From IMG/VR virus record IMGVR_UViG_3300037851_000037, positions 1 through 50,990 of that record: 50,990 nucleotides of DNA; one strand, 5' to 3'. Below, in pieces: positions 1-50,990 of this stretch; position 1 is the first letter of the stretch, and each line of letters starts with the position of its first letter. The notes under the pieces were generated by a model. It made no database searches, was not told where the DNA came from, and saw only the letters and a list, made by a program, of their open reading frames with translations. The position numbers and the translations under genes are program-made. Source of the DNA: a virus.

Positions 1-127
1 CGACCAGGGCGACCAGGGCGACCAGTCGCCGCCCGCGCCCGCGCCCGCGAAATCCCCGAAAAAGGGGAAAAGAAAAAGGGGTTAATCGATGATACAAACG
101 AAACAGGCGTTCGCCGTTCGGGATGAA
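1..127. repeat. Terminal direct repeat, identical to 50864..50990. Indicates closure of a circular or circularly permuted genome with a unique length of 50863 bp.
   Basis: Bases 1-127 (cgaccagggcgaccagggcgaccagtcgcc ... ggatgaa) recur base for base at 50864-50990. Bases 1-85 are the 3' end of the gene at 50625..50948. Confidence 0.95.
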
Positions 128-20742: not shown

Positions 20743-21053
20743 CCGGATTAGAATGGATAACGTTAGGGGTTATCGCGGTTAATTTTGTCGTCGGAACCAT
20801 CGGCGGCGCGATATGGAAAACCCAAAGGGACAAGGTAAAGGACGAAAAGGTCCGGTCCGTTATCGACGCCGCCGTTCGCGCCGCCGAAGAATTGAAACTG
20901 TCGAAACAGTTATCGACATCGAAAGCGGACTTTGTATGGAAAGTCGTCGAAAAGGAATTCCCCGCCCTTGCGAAAGATAAACCGGCGGTCGAAATGTTAA
21001 TAAACGCGGCGGTCCAGGCGGCGGGGTTAGGCGCGACCGGGAAACAGGGTTAA
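20739..21053 (+). CDS. Lysis-cassette membrane protein (holin/spanin candidate)
   Basis: 104 aa. N-terminal TM helix WITLGVIAVNFVVGTIGGAIW. ATGA overlap with the endolysin. It is the last gene of the + unit. Confidence 0.6.
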   Translation: MTGLEWITLGVIAVNFVVGTIGGAIWKTQRDKVKDEKVRSVIDAAVRAAEELKLSKQLSTSKADFVWKVVEKEFPALAKDKPAVEMLINAAVQAAGLGATGKQG

Positions 21054-30682: not shown

Positions 30683-32194
30683 TTAAAAGTCGTCCCCCCG
30701 TTCATCGACGCGCGGCGGGTCCAGGTCGCCGTCGATTTTTTTCGGTTCGGGAATGTTCCATACGCGAACGCACTTCCCTTTAATATTAAACTGGGAATGT
30801 CCGGCGTTTAAGGCGCGCAGTATTCGCCACGCATCCCGCGCCGTTTTTATTTGATAAAATCTGTTTTGGTCCAGGAATTTTAACAGGTCGCCCGCCCGGA
30901 AATAAACGCGCCCGTCGTCGACCCATGGTTTCCCCAGGATGATTTCGTCGCGGGACCGGGCGACCCCCCGGTCCGTCGCGAACTGGTCGACCAGGGTTAA
31001 AAACTGTCCGTCGATTCCGGCGTCCAGGGGCGCGTCGATGGTTTCGACCCTTTGTAATAACCTTTGAATAATCCCGTCCCATACTTTCGGACGGACTTTC
31101 GATGGTAATATGTTCATCCGTTCGATAATCAGGACGCGGAACCGTTCCTGGGATAACAGGTCGACCGTCGACGGAAGTTCGACCCGGACCCCATCGACAT
31201 CGATAATCCAGGTCGGCGGCGTCGTTTCAATTTTTACCAGTCCGCCGAAAGTAACGCCGGGGTCGTCGTCGTTTCCGGCGATACCGAATTCCCGCGTTAA
31301 ACATATCGTCCGGTTACAAACGCCGGAAATCGGATGGTCGTTACATTTATACGAATACGACTTTCGGCGTAACGATTTTATTATCGTTTGAATTTCCCGC
31401 GACTGTAACGGCGGGTCCATAAAACGCGAATTCATTTCGTCGACTTTGGTTTCCCAGTCGTCGCCGTATTTTTTCCGGGCGAAAACGCCCAGGTTAAAAA
31501 GTCCGTTATTGCGGGTCCCGTCCGGGAACCCGGCGGTCGACAGCGTTTGTAAACAGGGCGGCGCGCCGTCCAGGAAAACGTCCCCCGGCGTTTTTATCGC
31601 GACCAGGGCGGCGACCGATACCTGGACCGCGTCGGCGTAATCTAGGAACGCGGACAGGGACAGGCGCGCGCCGTCGCGAATCGCGTATCTGTCCGTTTTA
31701 TCGCCGCCGAAATATGGAATGTTTATCCAGTTCCCGACGTCGTCGTCGGACGCTAACTGGACTTGTTTCGGGAAAATTTCGACTTTTCCGAACCCCAGGG
31801 TTATCGCCCATTCCATCAATTTTTCGCGGACCAGTTTCGCGGGCGTCGGTTCGGATGTAAAAAGGTATAGATGTATTCCGCCGGATTTCGTCCGACAAAT
31901 AACCAGGGGGAAACCGAAACCCTTTATCCTGGTTTCGATTTCCCCCATATTTAAACCGTCGTATATGTCGACATCAATCGCGCCGAAACGACAGGTCGCG
32001 TCGTCGTCGATGGGAACGATTCCAAGTCCCGCCGCGCCTTTGATATGGGCGGCGTAAAGGTCCCGCGTAACCGGACCCTGGACTGTCCGCGCGCGTCCCT
32101 GGACTTTATTTTTCGCGATGTCCTTTTTCCCGATGGTATAAATTCCATACGCGCGGGACAATCCGCGAAACCTGTCGGCGAATCGTTCGACCAT
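30683..32194 (-). CDS. Archaeo-eukaryotic-type primase-polymerase (PrimPol) with a C-terminal extension
   Basis: 503 aa. Contains LGIVPIDDDATCRFGAIDVDIYD (DxD) and RTKSGGIHLYLF (sGGxH). No Walker A motif, so no fused helicase. Confidence 0.75.
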   Translation of the reverse strand: MVERFADRFRGLSRAYGIYTIGKKDIAKNKVQGRARTVQGPVTRDLYAAHIKGAAGLGIVPIDDDATCRFGAIDVDIYDGLNMGEIETRIKGFGFPLVICRTKSGGIHLYLFTSEPTPAKLVREKLMEWAITLGFGKVEIFPKQVQLASDDDVGNWINIPYFGGDKTDRYAIRDGARLSLSAFLDYADAVQVSVAALVAIKTPGDVFLDGAPPCLQTLSTAGFPDGTRNNGLFNLGVFARKKYGDDWETKVDEMNSRFMDPPLQSREIQTIIKSLRRKSYSYKCNDHPISGVCNRTICLTREFGIAGNDDDPGVTFGGLVKIETTPPTWIIDVDGVRVELPSTVDLLSQERFRVLIIERMNILPSKVRPKVWDGIIQRLLQRVETIDAPLDAGIDGQFLTLVDQFATDRGVARSRDEIILGKPWVDDGRVYFRAGDLLKFLDQNRFYQIKTARDAWRILRALNAGHSQFNIKGKCVRVWNIPEPKKIDGDLDPPRVDERGDDF

Positions 32195-36925: not shown

Positions 36926-37228
36926 TTAATCCCTTTTCGGTTCCAGTAACGGAATGTTCGGAAACGTTAGCGGGGGACATTTCGGACAGGCGTAAATAAA
37001 AATGTTCCCCAGGAAAAACCCGGACCAGTCGAACGGGACCATCGGTCCGACCGCGAAATCGCCCTGGATAATCGACCGGACCGCGCGGTCGCCGGAACGA
37101 CAAAGGAAACAAACGCGTTCGGCGATTGTTTCCCCGATGGTCCAGGTCGGCGGTTCATACGACAGGACATCATCGACCGCCCAGGTCGTCCCGCAAGATA
37201 AACAAGGTCGTTCGTCATTCGTCGACAT
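36926..37228 (-). CDS. Zinc-ribbon protein (about 100 aa); start uncertain (37228 or 37267)
   Basis: CLSCG, CFLC and CPKC motifs. The ATG at 37228 minimises overlap with the upstream gene. Confidence 0.5.
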   Translation of the reverse strand: MSTNDERPCLSCGTTWAVDDVLSYEPPTWTIGETIAERVCFLCRSGDRAVRSIIQGDFAVGPMVPFDWSGFFLGNIFIYACPKCPPLTFPNIPLLEPKRD

Positions 37229-37469
37229 CGTCGAAAACGTCCCGTTCAAGGCGGCGGACTGGTTCATCGATTGTTACCCGGTCGCCGACGGAATACCCAA
37301 TAGAAATGTGTTCGCGTTTTATTAAAAGGCGGCGGACATCGGGGTCGGTTATCCGGGCGGTTACGACGAACCCCTGGTCCGTTTGATGGACCCCCAGGAC
37401 TTGTCCGACCTGTTTCGATTGTCGTTTCGCGGGCGAACGGCGGAATAATTTCCATAACCAGTTAAACAT
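37215..37469 (-). CDS. Hypothetical protein (84 aa); first gene after promoter P3
   Basis: SD gatagaaaaggacaatcgATG. Preceded by the UTR box and P3. Confidence 0.6.
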   Translation of the reverse strand: MFNWLWKLFRRSPAKRQSKQVGQVLGVHQTDQGFVVTARITDPDVRRLLIKREHISIGYSVGDRVTIDEPVRRLERDVFDDVDE

Positions 37470-40447: not shown

Positions 40448-41236
40448 TTACTTGTCCCCCCTGGGAAGTCCATTCCAAAGGTCGACGGCGCGGGATTTCA
40501 GGTCGGAAACCGGACCGGACATTTCGCAAGTCAGACATTTAACCGACCATTTATTCGTTACGTTTCCCAGGTCGATGATTTCGAAATCATGGTCCATCCC
40601 GCAATTCGGACAGGCGACGAACCGGGGTTTCGCGTTCCATTCGCGGACCGCGCCCTGGACGGACGACGCCCAGTCGCCGGTCGTCCCGCAATCTGGACAA
40701 TGGACGCGGAACTGTTTAAACGACCGGAACGTTTCGTCGTCCATCAAAAGGTCGAAACCCTTTTCCCGGCGACAGGACGGACAGGGCGATTTTTTGAAAC
40801 GGTTAAACGACCGGACGGCGTCCTTTGCCTTTTCCGCCGTCGACTGTTCCGACGCGACGGACAAGGTAACATCACCCTGTAATTCGGCGTAATGTTCCGC
40901 GCGGTAATTTTCGGCGATTCGTTTCGCGGTTTCCAGGTCGACGCCCGACGCGATGGTCGCGATTATTCCGGCGTCCGAACAAAGGATAACCGAATACGGC
41001 CGCGGATAAACGAACGACGCGACGACCGCGTCCAGGTCGCCGCCGTTATACTGTCCCAGTTTCAGGAACGGACATTCGCGAACTGATTCGACGAACGCCG
41101 CCCAGGACGGCGCGTTAACGCCGACGCGGTCGGACTGGTCCTGGACGCGCGAATACAGGTCGCCCAGGGTTATCGATTCCGCGCGGTCGGCCATTAAACC
41201 GACCGTCGCCGCCTTGATTAACTCTTGATTGTTCAT
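40448..41236 (-). CDS. Protein with two tandem Lar-like (restriction alleviation) zinc-ribbon domains
   Basis: 262 aa. CPSC...VHCPDCGTTGDWASSVQGAVREWNAKP and ACPNCG...VKCLTCEMSGPVSDLKSRAVDLWNGLP match the Lar pattern CPxCG...C..C...A...WN. Confidence 0.6.
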   Translation of the reverse strand: MNNQELIKAATVGLMADRAESITLGDLYSRVQDQSDRVGVNAPSWAAFVESVRECPFLKLGQYNGGDLDAVVASFVYPRPYSVILCSDAGIIATIASGVDLETAKRIAENYRAEHYAELQGDVTLSVASEQSTAEKAKDAVRSFNRFKKSPCPSCRREKGFDLLMDDETFRSFKQFRVHCPDCGTTGDWASSVQGAVREWNAKPRFVACPNCGMDHDFEIIDLGNVTNKWSVKCLTCEMSGPVSDLKSRAVDLWNGLPRGDK

Positions 41237-41511
41237 TATTCGACCCCCAGTTCGACGCGGAAACCATTAACGGTCGAAACGGACGCGGACGTATGGTCGC
41301 CCAGGTCGATGATACCGATTACCTGGATACCGTGATTTTCCGCCTGGGACCCGGCGGAACGCGCAAGGTCGACGGAATGATGGAACGACCGAACCCGAAT
41401 ACTGTCCGGGTTATTCCGGTCGCGGACGACCAGGGCGGCGCGATAATGATGGAACGACTTGCGCGTAAACAGGACGCCGTTAATCCGAACCTTGTAAGTT
41501 ACCTTTTTCAT
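41236..41511 (-). CDS. First early gene product (91 aa, hypothetical)
   Basis: Start set at the ATG at 41511 (MKKVTYKV) with SD aaaggggaaacgATG. The 28 upstream track codons translate promoter P1 and the UTR box. Confidence 0.6.
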   Translation of the reverse strand: MKKVTYKVRINGVLFTRKSFHHYRAALVVRDRNNPDSIRVRSFHHSVDLARSAGSQAENHGIQVIGIIDLGDHTSASVSTVNGFRVELGVE

Positions 41512-41545: not shown

Positions 41546-41572
41546 TTTCGACGGTAAAATCCCGTAATTATG

Positions 41573-41601
41573 ATTTTACTAAAATCGGGGGACACAAGTC
41601 A
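41573..41601 (-). promoter_or_regulatory. Sigma70-like early promoter P1: TTGACT-N17-TAAAAT
   Basis: Minus strand TTGACTtgtgtcccccgatttagTAAAAT. -35 at 41601-41596 and -10 at 41578-41573. It sits at the head of the whole leftward operon. Confidence 0.65.
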
Positions 41602-41633
41602 AGCGAAAAAATGACGCCCCACGAAAAATATTT

Positions 41634-41675
41634 TAGCGGCAAAGTCACGGCAAGTTAGCGGCAAAAATTACGGCG
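41634..41675. repeat. Four helically phased (A/C)(G/A)CGGC(A/G) repeats upstream of P1
   Basis: agcggcaa 41634, cacggcaa 41645, agcggcaa 41656 and tacggcgc 41668, with spacings of 11, 11 and 12 bp. Confidence 0.6.
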
Positions 41676-41886
41676 CGCCCTGGAAATCCCCAGGTCGACG
41701 AACCAGTGTCCGCCGGGGATGAACAACCAGGTTGCGCGGACGACGTCTGGACCCCGCGCCGGGTTACTTCCTGGACCCCTGGGGGAACAGGGGGTCGGGG
41801 ACCAGGGCGCGCCGCCCTTTACGCGTATACAGGGGGACCAGGAAACACCGCGAAAAACCGTTCCCCTGGTCTATGGTTAGACGTAT

Positions 41887-42103
41887 CTTGACATATCAGG
41901 TTCGTATCAGGTTTAAAATCCCGTAACATCCCGTTATCGTTAACGTATATCAGTGAATCACTAATATCAAAACATTATGGTAATGAAAGAAAAAATTTTT
42001 CCCCCGCGTATACGCGTAAAAAGGGCGTTTGTCTGATATACTTGAATTATTCCAACTGGTTACAAGTGATATGGACCTGATATAACCTGATATACCTGAT
42101 ATT
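41887..42103. repeat. Iteron-like arrays in the AT-rich control region: 4x ATATCA(GG), then a 12-bp palindrome, then 5x (CC)TGATAT in the opposite orientation
   Basis: ATATCA-type sites at 41892, 41904, 41946 and 41963. Palindrome cgcgtatacgcg at 42004-42015. TGATAT sites at 42033, 42066, 42077, 42087 and 42096, the last three as CCTGATATA at 9-10 bp spacing. Confidence 0.75.
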
Positions 42104-42223
42104 TTAAATTCGGGGGTCAAAGGCGGGACAAAGTATTCGGGGGGAGTATATAAAAAGGCGGCGGGGAAGTCAATAAAAAAGCGATTGACTTTAAAGAAAA
42201 AACCGCCGACAATATAACACAAG

Positions 42224-42271
42224 TCCGTCGGGGGTCCCGCCCTGGTTCCTAAAGGTCGGGGACCCCCGGCG
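42224..42271 (+). other. 14-bp-stem hairpin in the terS leader
   Basis: ccgtcgggggtccc (42224-42237) pairs with gggacccccggcgg (42258-42271), including one G-T pair, around a 20-nt loop. It ends 28 nt before the terS ATG. Confidence 0.6.
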
Positions 42272-42298
42272 GAATAACATAACTGGACGGATTACCCG

Positions 42299-42730
42299 AT
42301 GGATAAAAAAGAACAATGTCGAATTAAATTACTGGAATATTTAGGCGACCCCGAAAATGAACCCCTGTCCCGCGCCGGACTTGCGTCCCGCGTCCTGGGG
42401 TTACGAAACCGAACCGGCCTTTATCGAGTATTCACAGTCCAGGAATTGTCCGACATCGAATCGGAAGCGTTAAAGGTCCGGCGTGAACGATGCGCGCGAC
42501 ATTCGTTTTCCGTCGACCGGGCGTTACTGAAAAAGGCGACGGCGGGGGATGTCAAGGCGGCGGAACTGTATTACAAGCGGATAGAGGGATGGAACGAAAA
42601 ACAGGTCGTTTCCATCGCCCCGTCCCTGGACGAAATCCGCGCCCTTGCGGTCGCCCAGGGTTACGACCCCGACGAATTCGTCGCCGTTTACCTGGGCGTT
42701 AAATCAAAGGGTCGGGGAATTGTCGAATAA
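42299..42730 (+). CDS. terS: Terminase small subunit (HTH DNA-binding)
   Basis: 143 aa. It is the first gene of the rightward unit and lies directly upstream of terL. KATAGDVKAAELYYKRIEGWNEKQ resembles the conserved TerS motif. Confidence 0.65.
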   Translation: MDKKEQCRIKLLEYLGDPENEPLSRAGLASRVLGLRNRTGLYRVFTVQELSDIESEALKVRRERCARHSFSVDRALLKKATAGDVKAAELYYKRIEGWNEKQVVSIAPSLDEIRALAVAQGYDPDEFVAVYLGVKSKGRGIVE

Positions 42731-50624: not shown

Positions 50625-50948
50625 ATGATTCGGTCAAAACAAACCAGGACATCGGCGGTCGCCGTCCGGTCGTTTACCGGAAAAGAAGGGCGATTACGTC
50701 CTGGACAGCGATTCGAAACGACCGTCGCGCGCCTGGACGAATTACGGCGCGCCGGACTTGCGCGCGCCGTAAACGAAAAAGCGGTTGCCGCGCCGTCGAA
50801 TAAAATGGTTTCGCCGCCGAAAAACAAGGCGGCGTTTTCCGTTTCGCCCGCGCCCGCGTCGTCCGACCAGGGCGACCAGGGCGACCAGTCGCCGCCCGCG
50901 CCCGCGCCCGCGAAATCCCCGAAAAAGGGGAAAAGAAAAAGGGGTTAA
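50625..50948 (+). CDS. Small basic / low-complexity protein (107 aa) downstream of the capsid gene
   Basis: SD acagggggacaggATG. The C-terminus is SSDQGDQGDQSPPAPAPAKSPKKGKRKRG. Its 3' end lies in the terminal repeat. Confidence 0.6.
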   Translation: MIRSKQTRTSAVAVRSFTGKEGRLRPGQRFETTVARLDELRRAGLARAVNEKAVAAPSNKMVSPPKNKAAFSVSPAPASSDQGDQGDQSPPAPAPAKSPKKGKRKRG

Positions 50949-50990
50949 TCGATGATACAAACGAAACAGGCGTTCGCCGTTCGGGATGAA

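Follow-up and report, generated by a model that had tools for sequence, protein, structure and literature searches.

In a complete phage genome, the gap between the divergent early and late genes carries nine copies of a short word with a TGATA core, which are arranged in two opposed arrays around a central palindrome. The arrays are real, conserved and polar. We tentatively read the region as the recognition site of the small terminase subunit (TerS), i.e., as a packaging-initiation region of the pac/cosB type directly upstream of terS; judged from gene order and sequence comparison, this reading comes near to an even chance and stays somewhat below it, and the same region may have an additional role as an operator. 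We favour it because the arrays, in a subset of lineages, travel with the neighbouring terS gene. The position upstream of terS, the apparent co-inheritance across different types of the large terminase subunit (TerL), the spacing of about one helical turn and the placement of two sets of sites on either side of a central segment all argue in the same direction.

Opposed arrays in the gap between the early and late arms

The window, by which we mean the whole stretch of DNA analysed (50,990 bp), has ends that are identical over 127 bp, thus indicating a circular assembly and a complete phage genome. The phage is a myovirus and virulent by appearance. Its late arm runs rightward from terS through TerL (Terminase_6N/6C), portal, a MuF-like protein, protease and capsid, continues across the wrap point with the tail, baseplate and lysis genes (the lysis cassette lies at 19.7–21 kb), and ends at 21053. 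The early arm extends leftward over 41595 to 21050, with products that include a family-A DNA polymerase, two UvrD-type helicases, an AEP/PriCT primase, an SNF2 helicase and an exonuclease. The arrays lie in the 700-bp gap that separates the early arm from terS-TerL-portal. This gap holds the largest and most AT-rich non-coding island of the window, which has no other large AT-rich gap. A sequence-only reading of this DNA had described the region as AT-rich, and this was borne out by a GC content of 30–42% over 41850–42200 vs. 56% genome-wide. The same reading had held that the genome-wide dinucleotide rules lapse here, which is true in part (TG/CA observed/expected 0.94 here vs. 0.48 genome-wide, CT/AG 0.57 vs. 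0.37).

The nine TGATA-core sites fall within 41894–42102, four of them pointing leftward and five rightward around the palindrome CGCGTATACGCG (Table 1). Their order, <<<< >>>>>, is strictly outward from the palindrome, and the chance of such a perfect sorting for nine sites is ~0.016. On the left, ATATCAGG at 41893–41900 and GTATCAGG at 41904–41911 read CCTGATAT/CCTGATAC on the minus strand; further along, the plus strand reads ATATCAG at 41947–41953 and ATATCA at 41964–41969. On the right, GTGATAT at 42066–42072 precedes three copies of CCTGATAT (at 42076, 42086 and 42095), each contained in a ACCTGATATA repeat (at 42075, 42085 and 42094; spacings of 10 and 9 bp). The spacing of 9–11 bp within the right array corresponds to about one site per helical turn.

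All the elements listed in the sequence-only reading were found, with coordinates that differed from ours by 1–2 bp. The four leftward sites, given there as ATATCA(GG), stood within 1–2 bp of their positions, the one at 41904 being GTATCA rather than ATATCA, and the five TGATAT sites in the inverse orientation were recovered, the last three of them as the 9–10 bp periodic array that had been described. The perfect 12-bp palindrome between the two sets (hereafter P_R) is present at 42005–42016, not at 42004–42015, and its partial copy reads ACGCGTATAC at 41821–41830, not at 41819; this is the core of a longer left palindrome, P_L. P_R is located where the orientation of the sites switches. Perfect 12-bp palindromes are common in the window (36 vs. 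13 expected), so that P_R is notable only for its conservation in relatives. The palindrome was also considered as a hairpin or terminator and rejected as such (DNA fold z-score of −1.1, no terminators called), and a search for known RNAs gave a single sub-threshold match (RT-2, E 0.13).

Table 1. Features of the early/late gap and of terS, with positions in the window.
Feature	Position	Strand	Remarks
Candidate early promoter, sigma-70-type, TTGACT-18-TAAAAT	41573..41602	−	promoter scan, 10/12 matches
Left palindrome P_L, TTTACGCGTATACAGGGGG, with core ACGCGTATAC	41818..41836	.	inverted copy of P_R
C-rich block GTTCCCC..GTCT..GG.TA	41860..41882	.	invariant columns in the three-phage alignment A3
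Two leftward-pointing sites, ATATCAGG and GTATCAGG	41893..41911	−	11 bp apart
Three ATCA(G/C/A) sites: ATATCAG, ATCAC, ATATCA	41947..41970	−	8–9 bp spacing; ATCA columns invariant in alignment A3
A6T5 tract followed by a C run	41990..42004	.	counterpart in relatives: T15–T20 run and CCC
Right palindrome P_R, CGCGTATACGCG	42005..42016	.	conserved: CACGTATACGCG in L191, ACGTATGCGCG in L190
First rightward-pointing site, CTGATAT	42033..42039	+	TGATAT invariant in three phages
B box TTGAATTATTCCA, near-palindromic	42042..42054	+	TTGAATAATTCCA in L191, TTCAATAATTCCA in L190
Four rightward-pointing sites, GTGATAT and then CCTGATAT x3	42066..42102	+	spacing 11, 10 and 9 bp
Second leftward promoter-like site, TTGACT-17-TATACT	42145..42173	−	scan 10/12; consensus match only
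Candidate late (terS) promoter, TTGACT-17-GACAAT	42185..42213	+	promoter scan
Strong hairpin, presumed terS 5′ leader	42224..42273	+	RNA fold −40.4 kcal/mol, z −2.7
terS, 143 aa, proposed cognate binding protein	42299..42730	+	PHROG terminase small subunit, E 4e-6

To evaluate the clustering, 5000 dinucleotide-preserving shuffles were made of 41887–42103 itself (35% GC). The results clearly showed that chance or AT-richness can be ruled out as the cause: TGATAT occurs 8 times vs. a shuffle mean of 0.36 and a maximum of 5, and CTGATA occurs 7 times vs. 0.09 expected, with 0/5000 shuffles reaching the observed count in either case. Thus, the possibility raised by the sequence-only reading, that shuffled sequences might yield as many sites in such an AT-rich segment, did not materialize. 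Within the window as a whole, 8 of the 22 copies of TGATAT fall within 210 bp, and CCTGATA is found 11 times vs. 1.3 expected, 5/11 being in the array region. The motif contains CT and TG, the very dinucleotides that are suppressed genome-wide to 0.37 and 0.48 of expectation. An interpretation of the sites as arrays of extended −10 elements (TGnTATAAT) was rejected, the conserved part being C-TGATA-T instead; a T at the −7-equivalent position is found in 2/9 sites of the window and in 13/29 sites overall. None of the consensus sequences of DnaA, IHF, Fur, PhoB and CRP, which were compared by eye, fits both the word and the spacing. Taken together, the data support the conclusion that the cluster is a non-random array of protein-binding-type repeats in a divergent early/late control region.

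As to the promoters, the early candidate adjoins, on the upstream side, the first leftward gene (41236–41511), and from the second leftward promoter-like site, if it is active, transcription would cross the arrays. At the position equivalent to that of the late candidate, both relatives described below (L190 and L191) have better sigma-70 promoters with an extended −10. P_R is separated from the late −35 by ~170 bp in the window vs. ~40 bp in L190 and L191, and P_L from the early −35 by ~215 bp in the window. A rightward promoter within the array region, TTGACA-N18-TTTAAA, had been put forward from the sequence; the letters are there, with the TTGACA at 41888, and the −10 is poor and was not called by the promoter scan.

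Conservation in relatives, and other functions considered

A search of INPHARED in near and distant modes gave no similar DNA. In a large protein database, one contig (L189) proved identical to the window, and two true relatives were found, L190 (JGI) and L191–L193 (ENA/Logan). When L190 and L191 are compared with the window, TerL is 56–57% and TerS 46–48% identical, and both have the same divergent layout. The intergenic region of L190 bears 11 TGATA cores in 624 bp vs. 8 in the remaining 7.8 kb, and that of L191 bears 9 in 484 bp vs. 8 in 12.8 kb. The site consensus for the three phages is C-TGATA-T.

Moreover, a collinear module of ~230–260 bp aligns in the window, L190 and L191. It comprises, in this order, P_L, the C-rich block, sites, three ATCA(G/C) sites spaced by 8–9 bp, a T-run, CCC, P_R and TGATAT. 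The comparison with related phages, which the sequence-only reading had proposed, thus found the sites conserved both as a motif and as part of a collinear module. The cluster of ATCA sites at 41947–41970 is positionally conserved in L190 and L191, and P_R is followed by a TGATAT site in all three phages. P_L aligns with TTTACGCGTATAC in L191 and TTTACACGCGCAC in L190; together with P_R it makes up an inverted repeat of 19 nt with 89% complementarity. The B box is placed directly after a CTGATA site in every case. A second unit, which consists of the CTGATAT array and the box TTGAATWATTCCA, has a constant orientation in the three phages; L190 and L191 have it on the left side of the module, the window on the right side. 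We considered whether this change of position could stem from an inversion between P_L and P_R and discarded the idea, the internal segment having the same orientation in 3/3 phages.

Between the window and L191, the genes terS, TerL and portal are homologous, and the adjacent early genes have no detectable homology. A Zn-ribbon ORF at 36926–37267, distant from the region, is also conserved with L191, and it is the sole conserved small protein found besides terS. The motif is absent from the more distant TerL relatives L194, L197, L200, L355 and L356. Scans of viral, metagenome and genome collections with double-site, B-box and triple-site patterns gave no TerS homologue among the matches listed, and patterns back-translated from the terS alignment A2 had no match in viral or genome contigs. 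Contigs L189, L191 and L192 read straight through the site; the ends of other contigs at the T-run (L193) or inside terS (L356, L357) are not interpretable as physical termini.

The conserved elements could also form an operator complex that serves a transcription factor distinct from TerS. The CTGATAT words would be occupied by a phage or host protein and P_L and P_R by a dimer, possibly looping the 165–230 bp between them, so as to switch the divergent early and late promoters. We consider this unlikely, though it has several points in its favour: the region falls precisely where the two units diverge and has promoter-like sites on either side, two left sites are found between TTGACA and an A/T-rich −10-like box, the dyad element is present in two inverted copies, and in L190 and L191 P_R and one site occupy roughly −66 to −84 relative to a good terS promoter. 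The Zn-ribbon protein, being conserved, could serve as the regulator. However, the distances from the module to the promoters vary, as seen above for P_R and the late −35, and this lack of conservation disfavours an operator or activator that depends on geometry. Further points against it are that the side of the module on which the array lies varies between phages, that the adjacent early genes are not conserved, and that the words do not behave as −10 elements, only 2/9 having the T at the −7-equivalent position. No repressor-like protein, be it Cro-, CI- or Arc-like, was detected among the ORFs scanned. Finally, the arrays recur beside terS homologues in phages with an unrelated TerL and no other common neighbour.

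A replication origin, with the CTGATAT words as iterons, the A/T tract as an unwinding element and the dyad as a loading or priming site, appears distinctly improbable to us. One possible initiator would be the AEP/PriCT primase (gene at 30683–32194), through its C-terminal part. The proposal draws on the position of the region in the largest and most AT-rich non-coding island of the genome, on the resemblance of opposed short repeats, an A/T tract (A6T5; T15–20 in relatives) and a dyad to origin architecture, and on the finding of no better iteron cluster near the replication genes and of no better candidate elsewhere in the genome. In addition, the cumulative GC skew, which the sequence-only reading had suggested as a check, has its minimum at 41–42 kb, in the region, and its maximum at ~21 kb. 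The flip of the skew coincides exactly with the flip of gene orientation, so that GC skew is unable to tell replication from transcription and provides no independent evidence of an origin. The replication genes are 5–20 kb away and no initiator gene is adjacent; the leftward neighbours are unrelated between lineages, and in three lineages described below (L375, L360 and L403) the arrays track terS and not the replication genes. No DnaA-box matches were seen on comparison by eye.

We also considered a site of the attP type, with arm-type repeats and an integrase core, or of the centromere type (parS/parC), with iterons and a partition adaptor. The layout does resemble that of lambda attP, where arm sites in tandem are combined with a bend site and a dyad core, and that of the R1 parC centromere, with its two sets of ~11-bp iterons. 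Pfam and PHROG scans of the ORFs tested found no integrase, recombinase, ParA/ParB, ParM/ParR or repressor, and the absence of the required enzymes disfavours both types, as does the virulent-looking genome with its divergent early and late arms and lysis cassette. Either type is very improbable. The sequence-only reading, in its turn, had envisaged a replication origin or a looping repressor/activator operator; what stands of it is a non-random, conserved array of the binding type in a control region, and neither of the two functions is the best supported one.

The terS gene next to the arrays and its family

The favoured reading, that of a TerS recognition site, points to the gene next to the arrays. 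terS lies directly upstream of TerL, and the order terS, TerL (Terminase_6), portal, MuF is that of an SPP1-type packaging module. TerS gave a weak match to HTH_Tnp_1_2. Its AlphaFold model has three N-terminal helices (pLDDT 85–90 over residues 1–60) followed by long helices, and the N-terminus is predicted to be a helix-turn-helix (HTH). In a fold search, no solved TerS matched the model significantly; the top match was 2ao9, a phage protein (E 0.67). The TGATA-core sites are 202–405 bp upstream of the terS start (42299) and none is found within the terS coding sequence; the placement upstream of terS also holds in L190, L191, L375, L403 and L360. The sequence-only reading had found no identifiable cognate binding protein among the annotated genes. 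We disagree on this point: the adjacent terS encodes a protein with a predicted N-terminal HTH, and it is the sole neighbouring gene that is common to all five lineages with clear TGATA-core arrays.

The N-terminal ~105 residues of TerS are conserved in a family of 335 clusters at 50% identity, whose members precede unrelated large terminases. In L375, TerS is 47% identical over the N-terminal domain, TerL is of the gpA type, and no other gene is common with the window. Upstream of its terS there are 10 TGATA-core sites in 500 bp, in the order <<<<<<>>>> and with the word TTTGATACAC; TTGATAC is observed 6 times vs. 0.64 expected (0/200 shuffles). L403 bears five TGATA-core sites in the order >>> <<, where three copies of TTGATAAT/CTGATAAT face two of ATCAG. 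In L360, whose TerL is unrelated to that of the window, all five copies of TGATAT in the 3.5-kb contig are upstream of terS, and one of the five immediately follows a palindrome; this is weak evidence (p ~0.045).

At least five TGATA cores within 200 bp were found at 7/47 loci of the TerS family vs. 1/73 control loci chosen by TerL similarity; some of the family clusters sit in coding DNA and appear incidental. At 43 distant IMG/VR loci of the family there was no overall enrichment of TGATAT upstream of terS (1.37 vs. 1.08 per kb). Altogether, arrays and terS co-occur in 5–6 lineages, some with an unrelated TerL, as judged from short comparison contigs, and the leftward neighbours of the arrays are unrelated between lineages. 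These comparisons suggest that the link between the arrays and terS is real for a subset of lineages, not for the whole TerS family, in which most of the distant members are without the motif. The contigs of L375, L360 and L403 are only 3.5–6 kb long, and a common regulator or initiator may be encoded elsewhere in those genomes.

The observed variants of the word are CTGATAT, TTGATAC and TTGATAA. A broader proposal, which we regard as possible and rather doubtful, is that in the TerS family of 335 clusters the N-terminal HTH reads a 7-bp word, TGATA with lineage-specific flanks, which is helically repeated in opposed arrays, and that the domain and its sites would move as a cassette between phages with unrelated TerL and into satellite-like islands. 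If this were so, small terminases would have a sequence-specific, polar docking code, which would also offer a natural system for retargeting packaging.

For the region itself, we infer TerS binding, the position of a cut and a regulatory effect in the following way. Each HTH of a TerS oligomer would read one 7-bp word, C-TGATA-T. With words every 9–11 bp, i.e., about a helical turn, successive subunits of a ring or filament could bind along the same face of the DNA; in TerS rings, neighbouring HTH motifs are separated by about one DNA turn (PMC4737164). The opposed sets of words flank the A/T tract and the CGCGTATACGCG dyad, so the DNA would be bent or wrapped, and the central segment may thereby be presented to the large subunit for the first cut. 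The sites have the divergent early and late promoters on their two sides, and their occupancy by TerS would probably feed back on transcription, as with G1P of SPP1. The SPP1 pac overlaps the terS promoters and SPP1 TerS represses its own synthesis (PMC6316719), which makes a combined packaging and regulatory role plausible here.

Besides the missing family-wide enrichment, the short comparison contigs, the contigs that read through the site and the fold search, further observations count against the TerS reading. The DNA-binding domain of SF6/SPP1 TerS, the best-studied one of the pac type, has little sequence specificity and binds almost non-specifically (PMC4737164), so that recognition of a crisp 7-bp word would be unusual. 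The dyad is present twice, 165–230 bp apart, and such a pair looks more like looping operators than like one cleavage site. The region is also the most AT-rich locus and the minimum of the GC skew.

There is as yet no agreed account of how ring-shaped small terminases find the viral genome. If the TerS reading holds true, the region would count among the pac/cosB-type sites, not as a new category of element; what sets it apart would be a 7-bp code that is unusually explicit, polar and helically phased and goes with an uncharacterised TerS family. Pac sites would become predictable in uncultured phages, and the redirection of packaging by satellites that carry a terS homologue would be in part explained. 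A crisp word linked to one TerS domain across TerL types makes TerS-DNA recognition directly testable. Should the region be an origin or an operator instead, the result would amount to no more than routine annotation, namely of one uncultured phage's control region.

Comparison with known origin, partition and packaging sites

Short repeats with roughly helical periodicity, in direct and inverted orientation and beside an A/T-rich tract and dyads, are known from lambda ori, P4 ori (with its TGTTCACC octamers) and R1 parC, and the region resembles them in its helically spaced direct and inverted repeats near an A/T-rich tract and dyads. Unlike iteron origins and R1 parC, it has no adjacent initiator or partition gene, and its arrays co-occur with terS across lineages.

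Among packaging sites, lambda cosB consists of the sites R3-I1-R2-R1 next to cosN, where the R sites are bound by the winged helix-turn-helix of gpNu1. There, the repeats bound by TerS occupy the stretch from the cleavage site to the terS start, a bend brings oppositely oriented sites together, and the nicking site has dyad symmetry; the region may be likened to cosB in each of these respects, and the array-bearing relative L375 has a TerL of the gpA type. Lambda differs in having three 16-bp R sites on one side only. Cohesive ends are not indicated here, and the TerL of the window is of the Terminase_6 type, not of the gpA type.

In P1 pac, four and three TGATCA/G hexamers (HEX4 and HEX3) flank an IHF site and the cut (PMC10028697). 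Just as in P1, there are two clusters (4 + 3 in P1, 4 + 5 here) within ~160–210 bp, with a central segment between them that holds a bend site and the presumed cut, and the hexamers themselves are similar, TGATCA in P1 and TGATAT here (PMC10028697). Unlike those of the window, the P1 hexamers are palindromic Dam sites through which methylation controls cleavage; GATC is strongly avoided in the window genome (9 copies vs. 194 expected). Moreover, P1 pac is inside pacA, and PacA and PacB are unrelated to the proteins here.

In the SPP1 pac, which comprises sets of direct repeats, the cut site pacC lies between pacL and pacR (PMC6316719). Just as in SPP1/SF6, the proposed site is located directly upstream of the terS that heads a terS-TerL-portal-MuF module. 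In SPP1/SF6, pac and the terS promoters overlap, short direct repeats occur in several sets, and the TerS-bound regions flank the cut and are associated with A/T tracts and bendable DNA (PMC6316719, PMC4737164); the region may be likened to this pac in these features as well, going by genes and sequence. Unlike SPP1, the TerS of the window is without detectable sequence similarity to G1P, the sites stop short of the terS coding sequence, the cut being presumed only, and one sharply defined 7-bp word is present in nine copies with opposite polarity on the two sides.

Genome completeness and composition

The first 127 bp of the window (1-127) are identical to the last 127 bp (50864-50990). This identity is the k-mer overlap that remains when a sequence assembles as a circle; the genome in the window is therefore complete, at 50,863 bp. 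At the circular junction, we found a tandem repeat comprising 2.8 units of CGACCAGGG.

Extreme dinucleotide rules govern the composition of the whole window, with observed/expected ratios of 0.37 for CT/AG, 0.48 for TG/CA and 1.79 for CG. The tetranucleotide TGCA occurs once, as against 194 copies expected, and other 4-bp palindromes are nearly missing as well (GGCC, 6 copies; AGCT, 7; CATG, 7; GATC, 9; CTAG, 16; GTAC, 21), while many 6-bp palindromes are not represented by a single copy. Such a composition suggests either that restriction sites are very heavily avoided or that the genome mutates under a modified or unusual regime.

Further elements of the early/late intergenic region and a candidate regulator

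Besides the TGATA-core repeats, the intergenic region bears a second repeat family, TAAAATCCCGTAA, represented by two perfect copies and one copy at 85% identity. One copy is located at the early promoter, and two are arranged in tandem immediately after the left CTGATAT pair. This family could provide a site for a second binding protein.

Within the otherwise AT-rich intergenic region lies a GC-rich island (61-70% GC), which is absent from two relatives of the phage, L190 and L191 (TerL 56-57% identical). It comprises numerous GGACC/GGTCC motifs and a perfect 13-nt inverted repeat, and for each of its strands the predicted folding is unusually good (z -3.1 and -3.0). Either an inserted structured element or a small RNA could account for the island. 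The presumed terS leader comprises a strong hairpin, with a folding energy of -40 kcal/mol (z -2.7), and a comparable hairpin is situated in L190 between its promoter and terS. This leader hairpin may serve as an attenuator or an RNA-stability element of the late operon.

An ORF overlooked by the gene caller on the public contig encodes a Zn-ribbon protein of 113 aa (two CxxC pairs), which we consider a candidate regulator. Its homologue in L191 shows 41% identity (E 6e-17).

Coordinates of the features in the window and in related loci
Feature	Locus	Coordinates
TAAAATCCCGTAA, copy	window	41555-41567
TAAAATCCCGTAA, copy	window	41914-41926
TAAAATCCCGTAA, copy	window	41924-41936
GC-rich island	window	41650-41880
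13-nt inverted repeat in the island	window	41671-83 with 41802-14
terS leader hairpin	window	42224-42273
Zn-ribbon protein	window	36926-37267 (-)
Hairpin between promoter and terS	L190	~535-575
~35-bp repeats	L197	2935-3430
Satellite-like island	L358	1182-7445
CGATCGCC upstream of terS	L360	960-1030

Repeats and contig ends in relatives

The more distant relative L197 carries, in its own divergent intergenic region, five ~35-bp repeats (CCGTCGGACGCGGCCAAGCGATATAT..GCTAAG) spaced ~60-80 bp apart, and the Logan contigs L198 and L199, independent of each other, both terminate exactly in this region. These repeats may constitute a different iteron or terminus system. Two assemblies of another relative (L356 and L357; TerL 53% identical) share the same first base, ~80 nt inside terS, and a Logan contig of the L191 phage (L193) has its position 1 at the T20 run beside the right dyad. 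These starts could reflect physical ends or assembly artefacts.

Loci of TerS-family homologues

Microcystis and Pseudanabaena phages are among the best named matches to the window's TerL. One TerS-family gene (L358) comes from a Desulfobacteraceae MAG, in which it resides within a satellite-like island whose gene order is HTH regulator, Toprim/D5 primase, HTH_17 protein, TerS homologue, 190-aa protein and reverse transcriptase; this island lacks a TerL, and TGATATCA lies there at -172. At another locus (L360), CGATCGCC is present twice upstream of terS. When compared with the cyanobacterial HIP1 repeat GCGATCGC, CGATCGCC overlaps it in 7/8 HIP1 bases, and this HIP1-like sequence hints at a cyanobacterial host for the L360 lineage.
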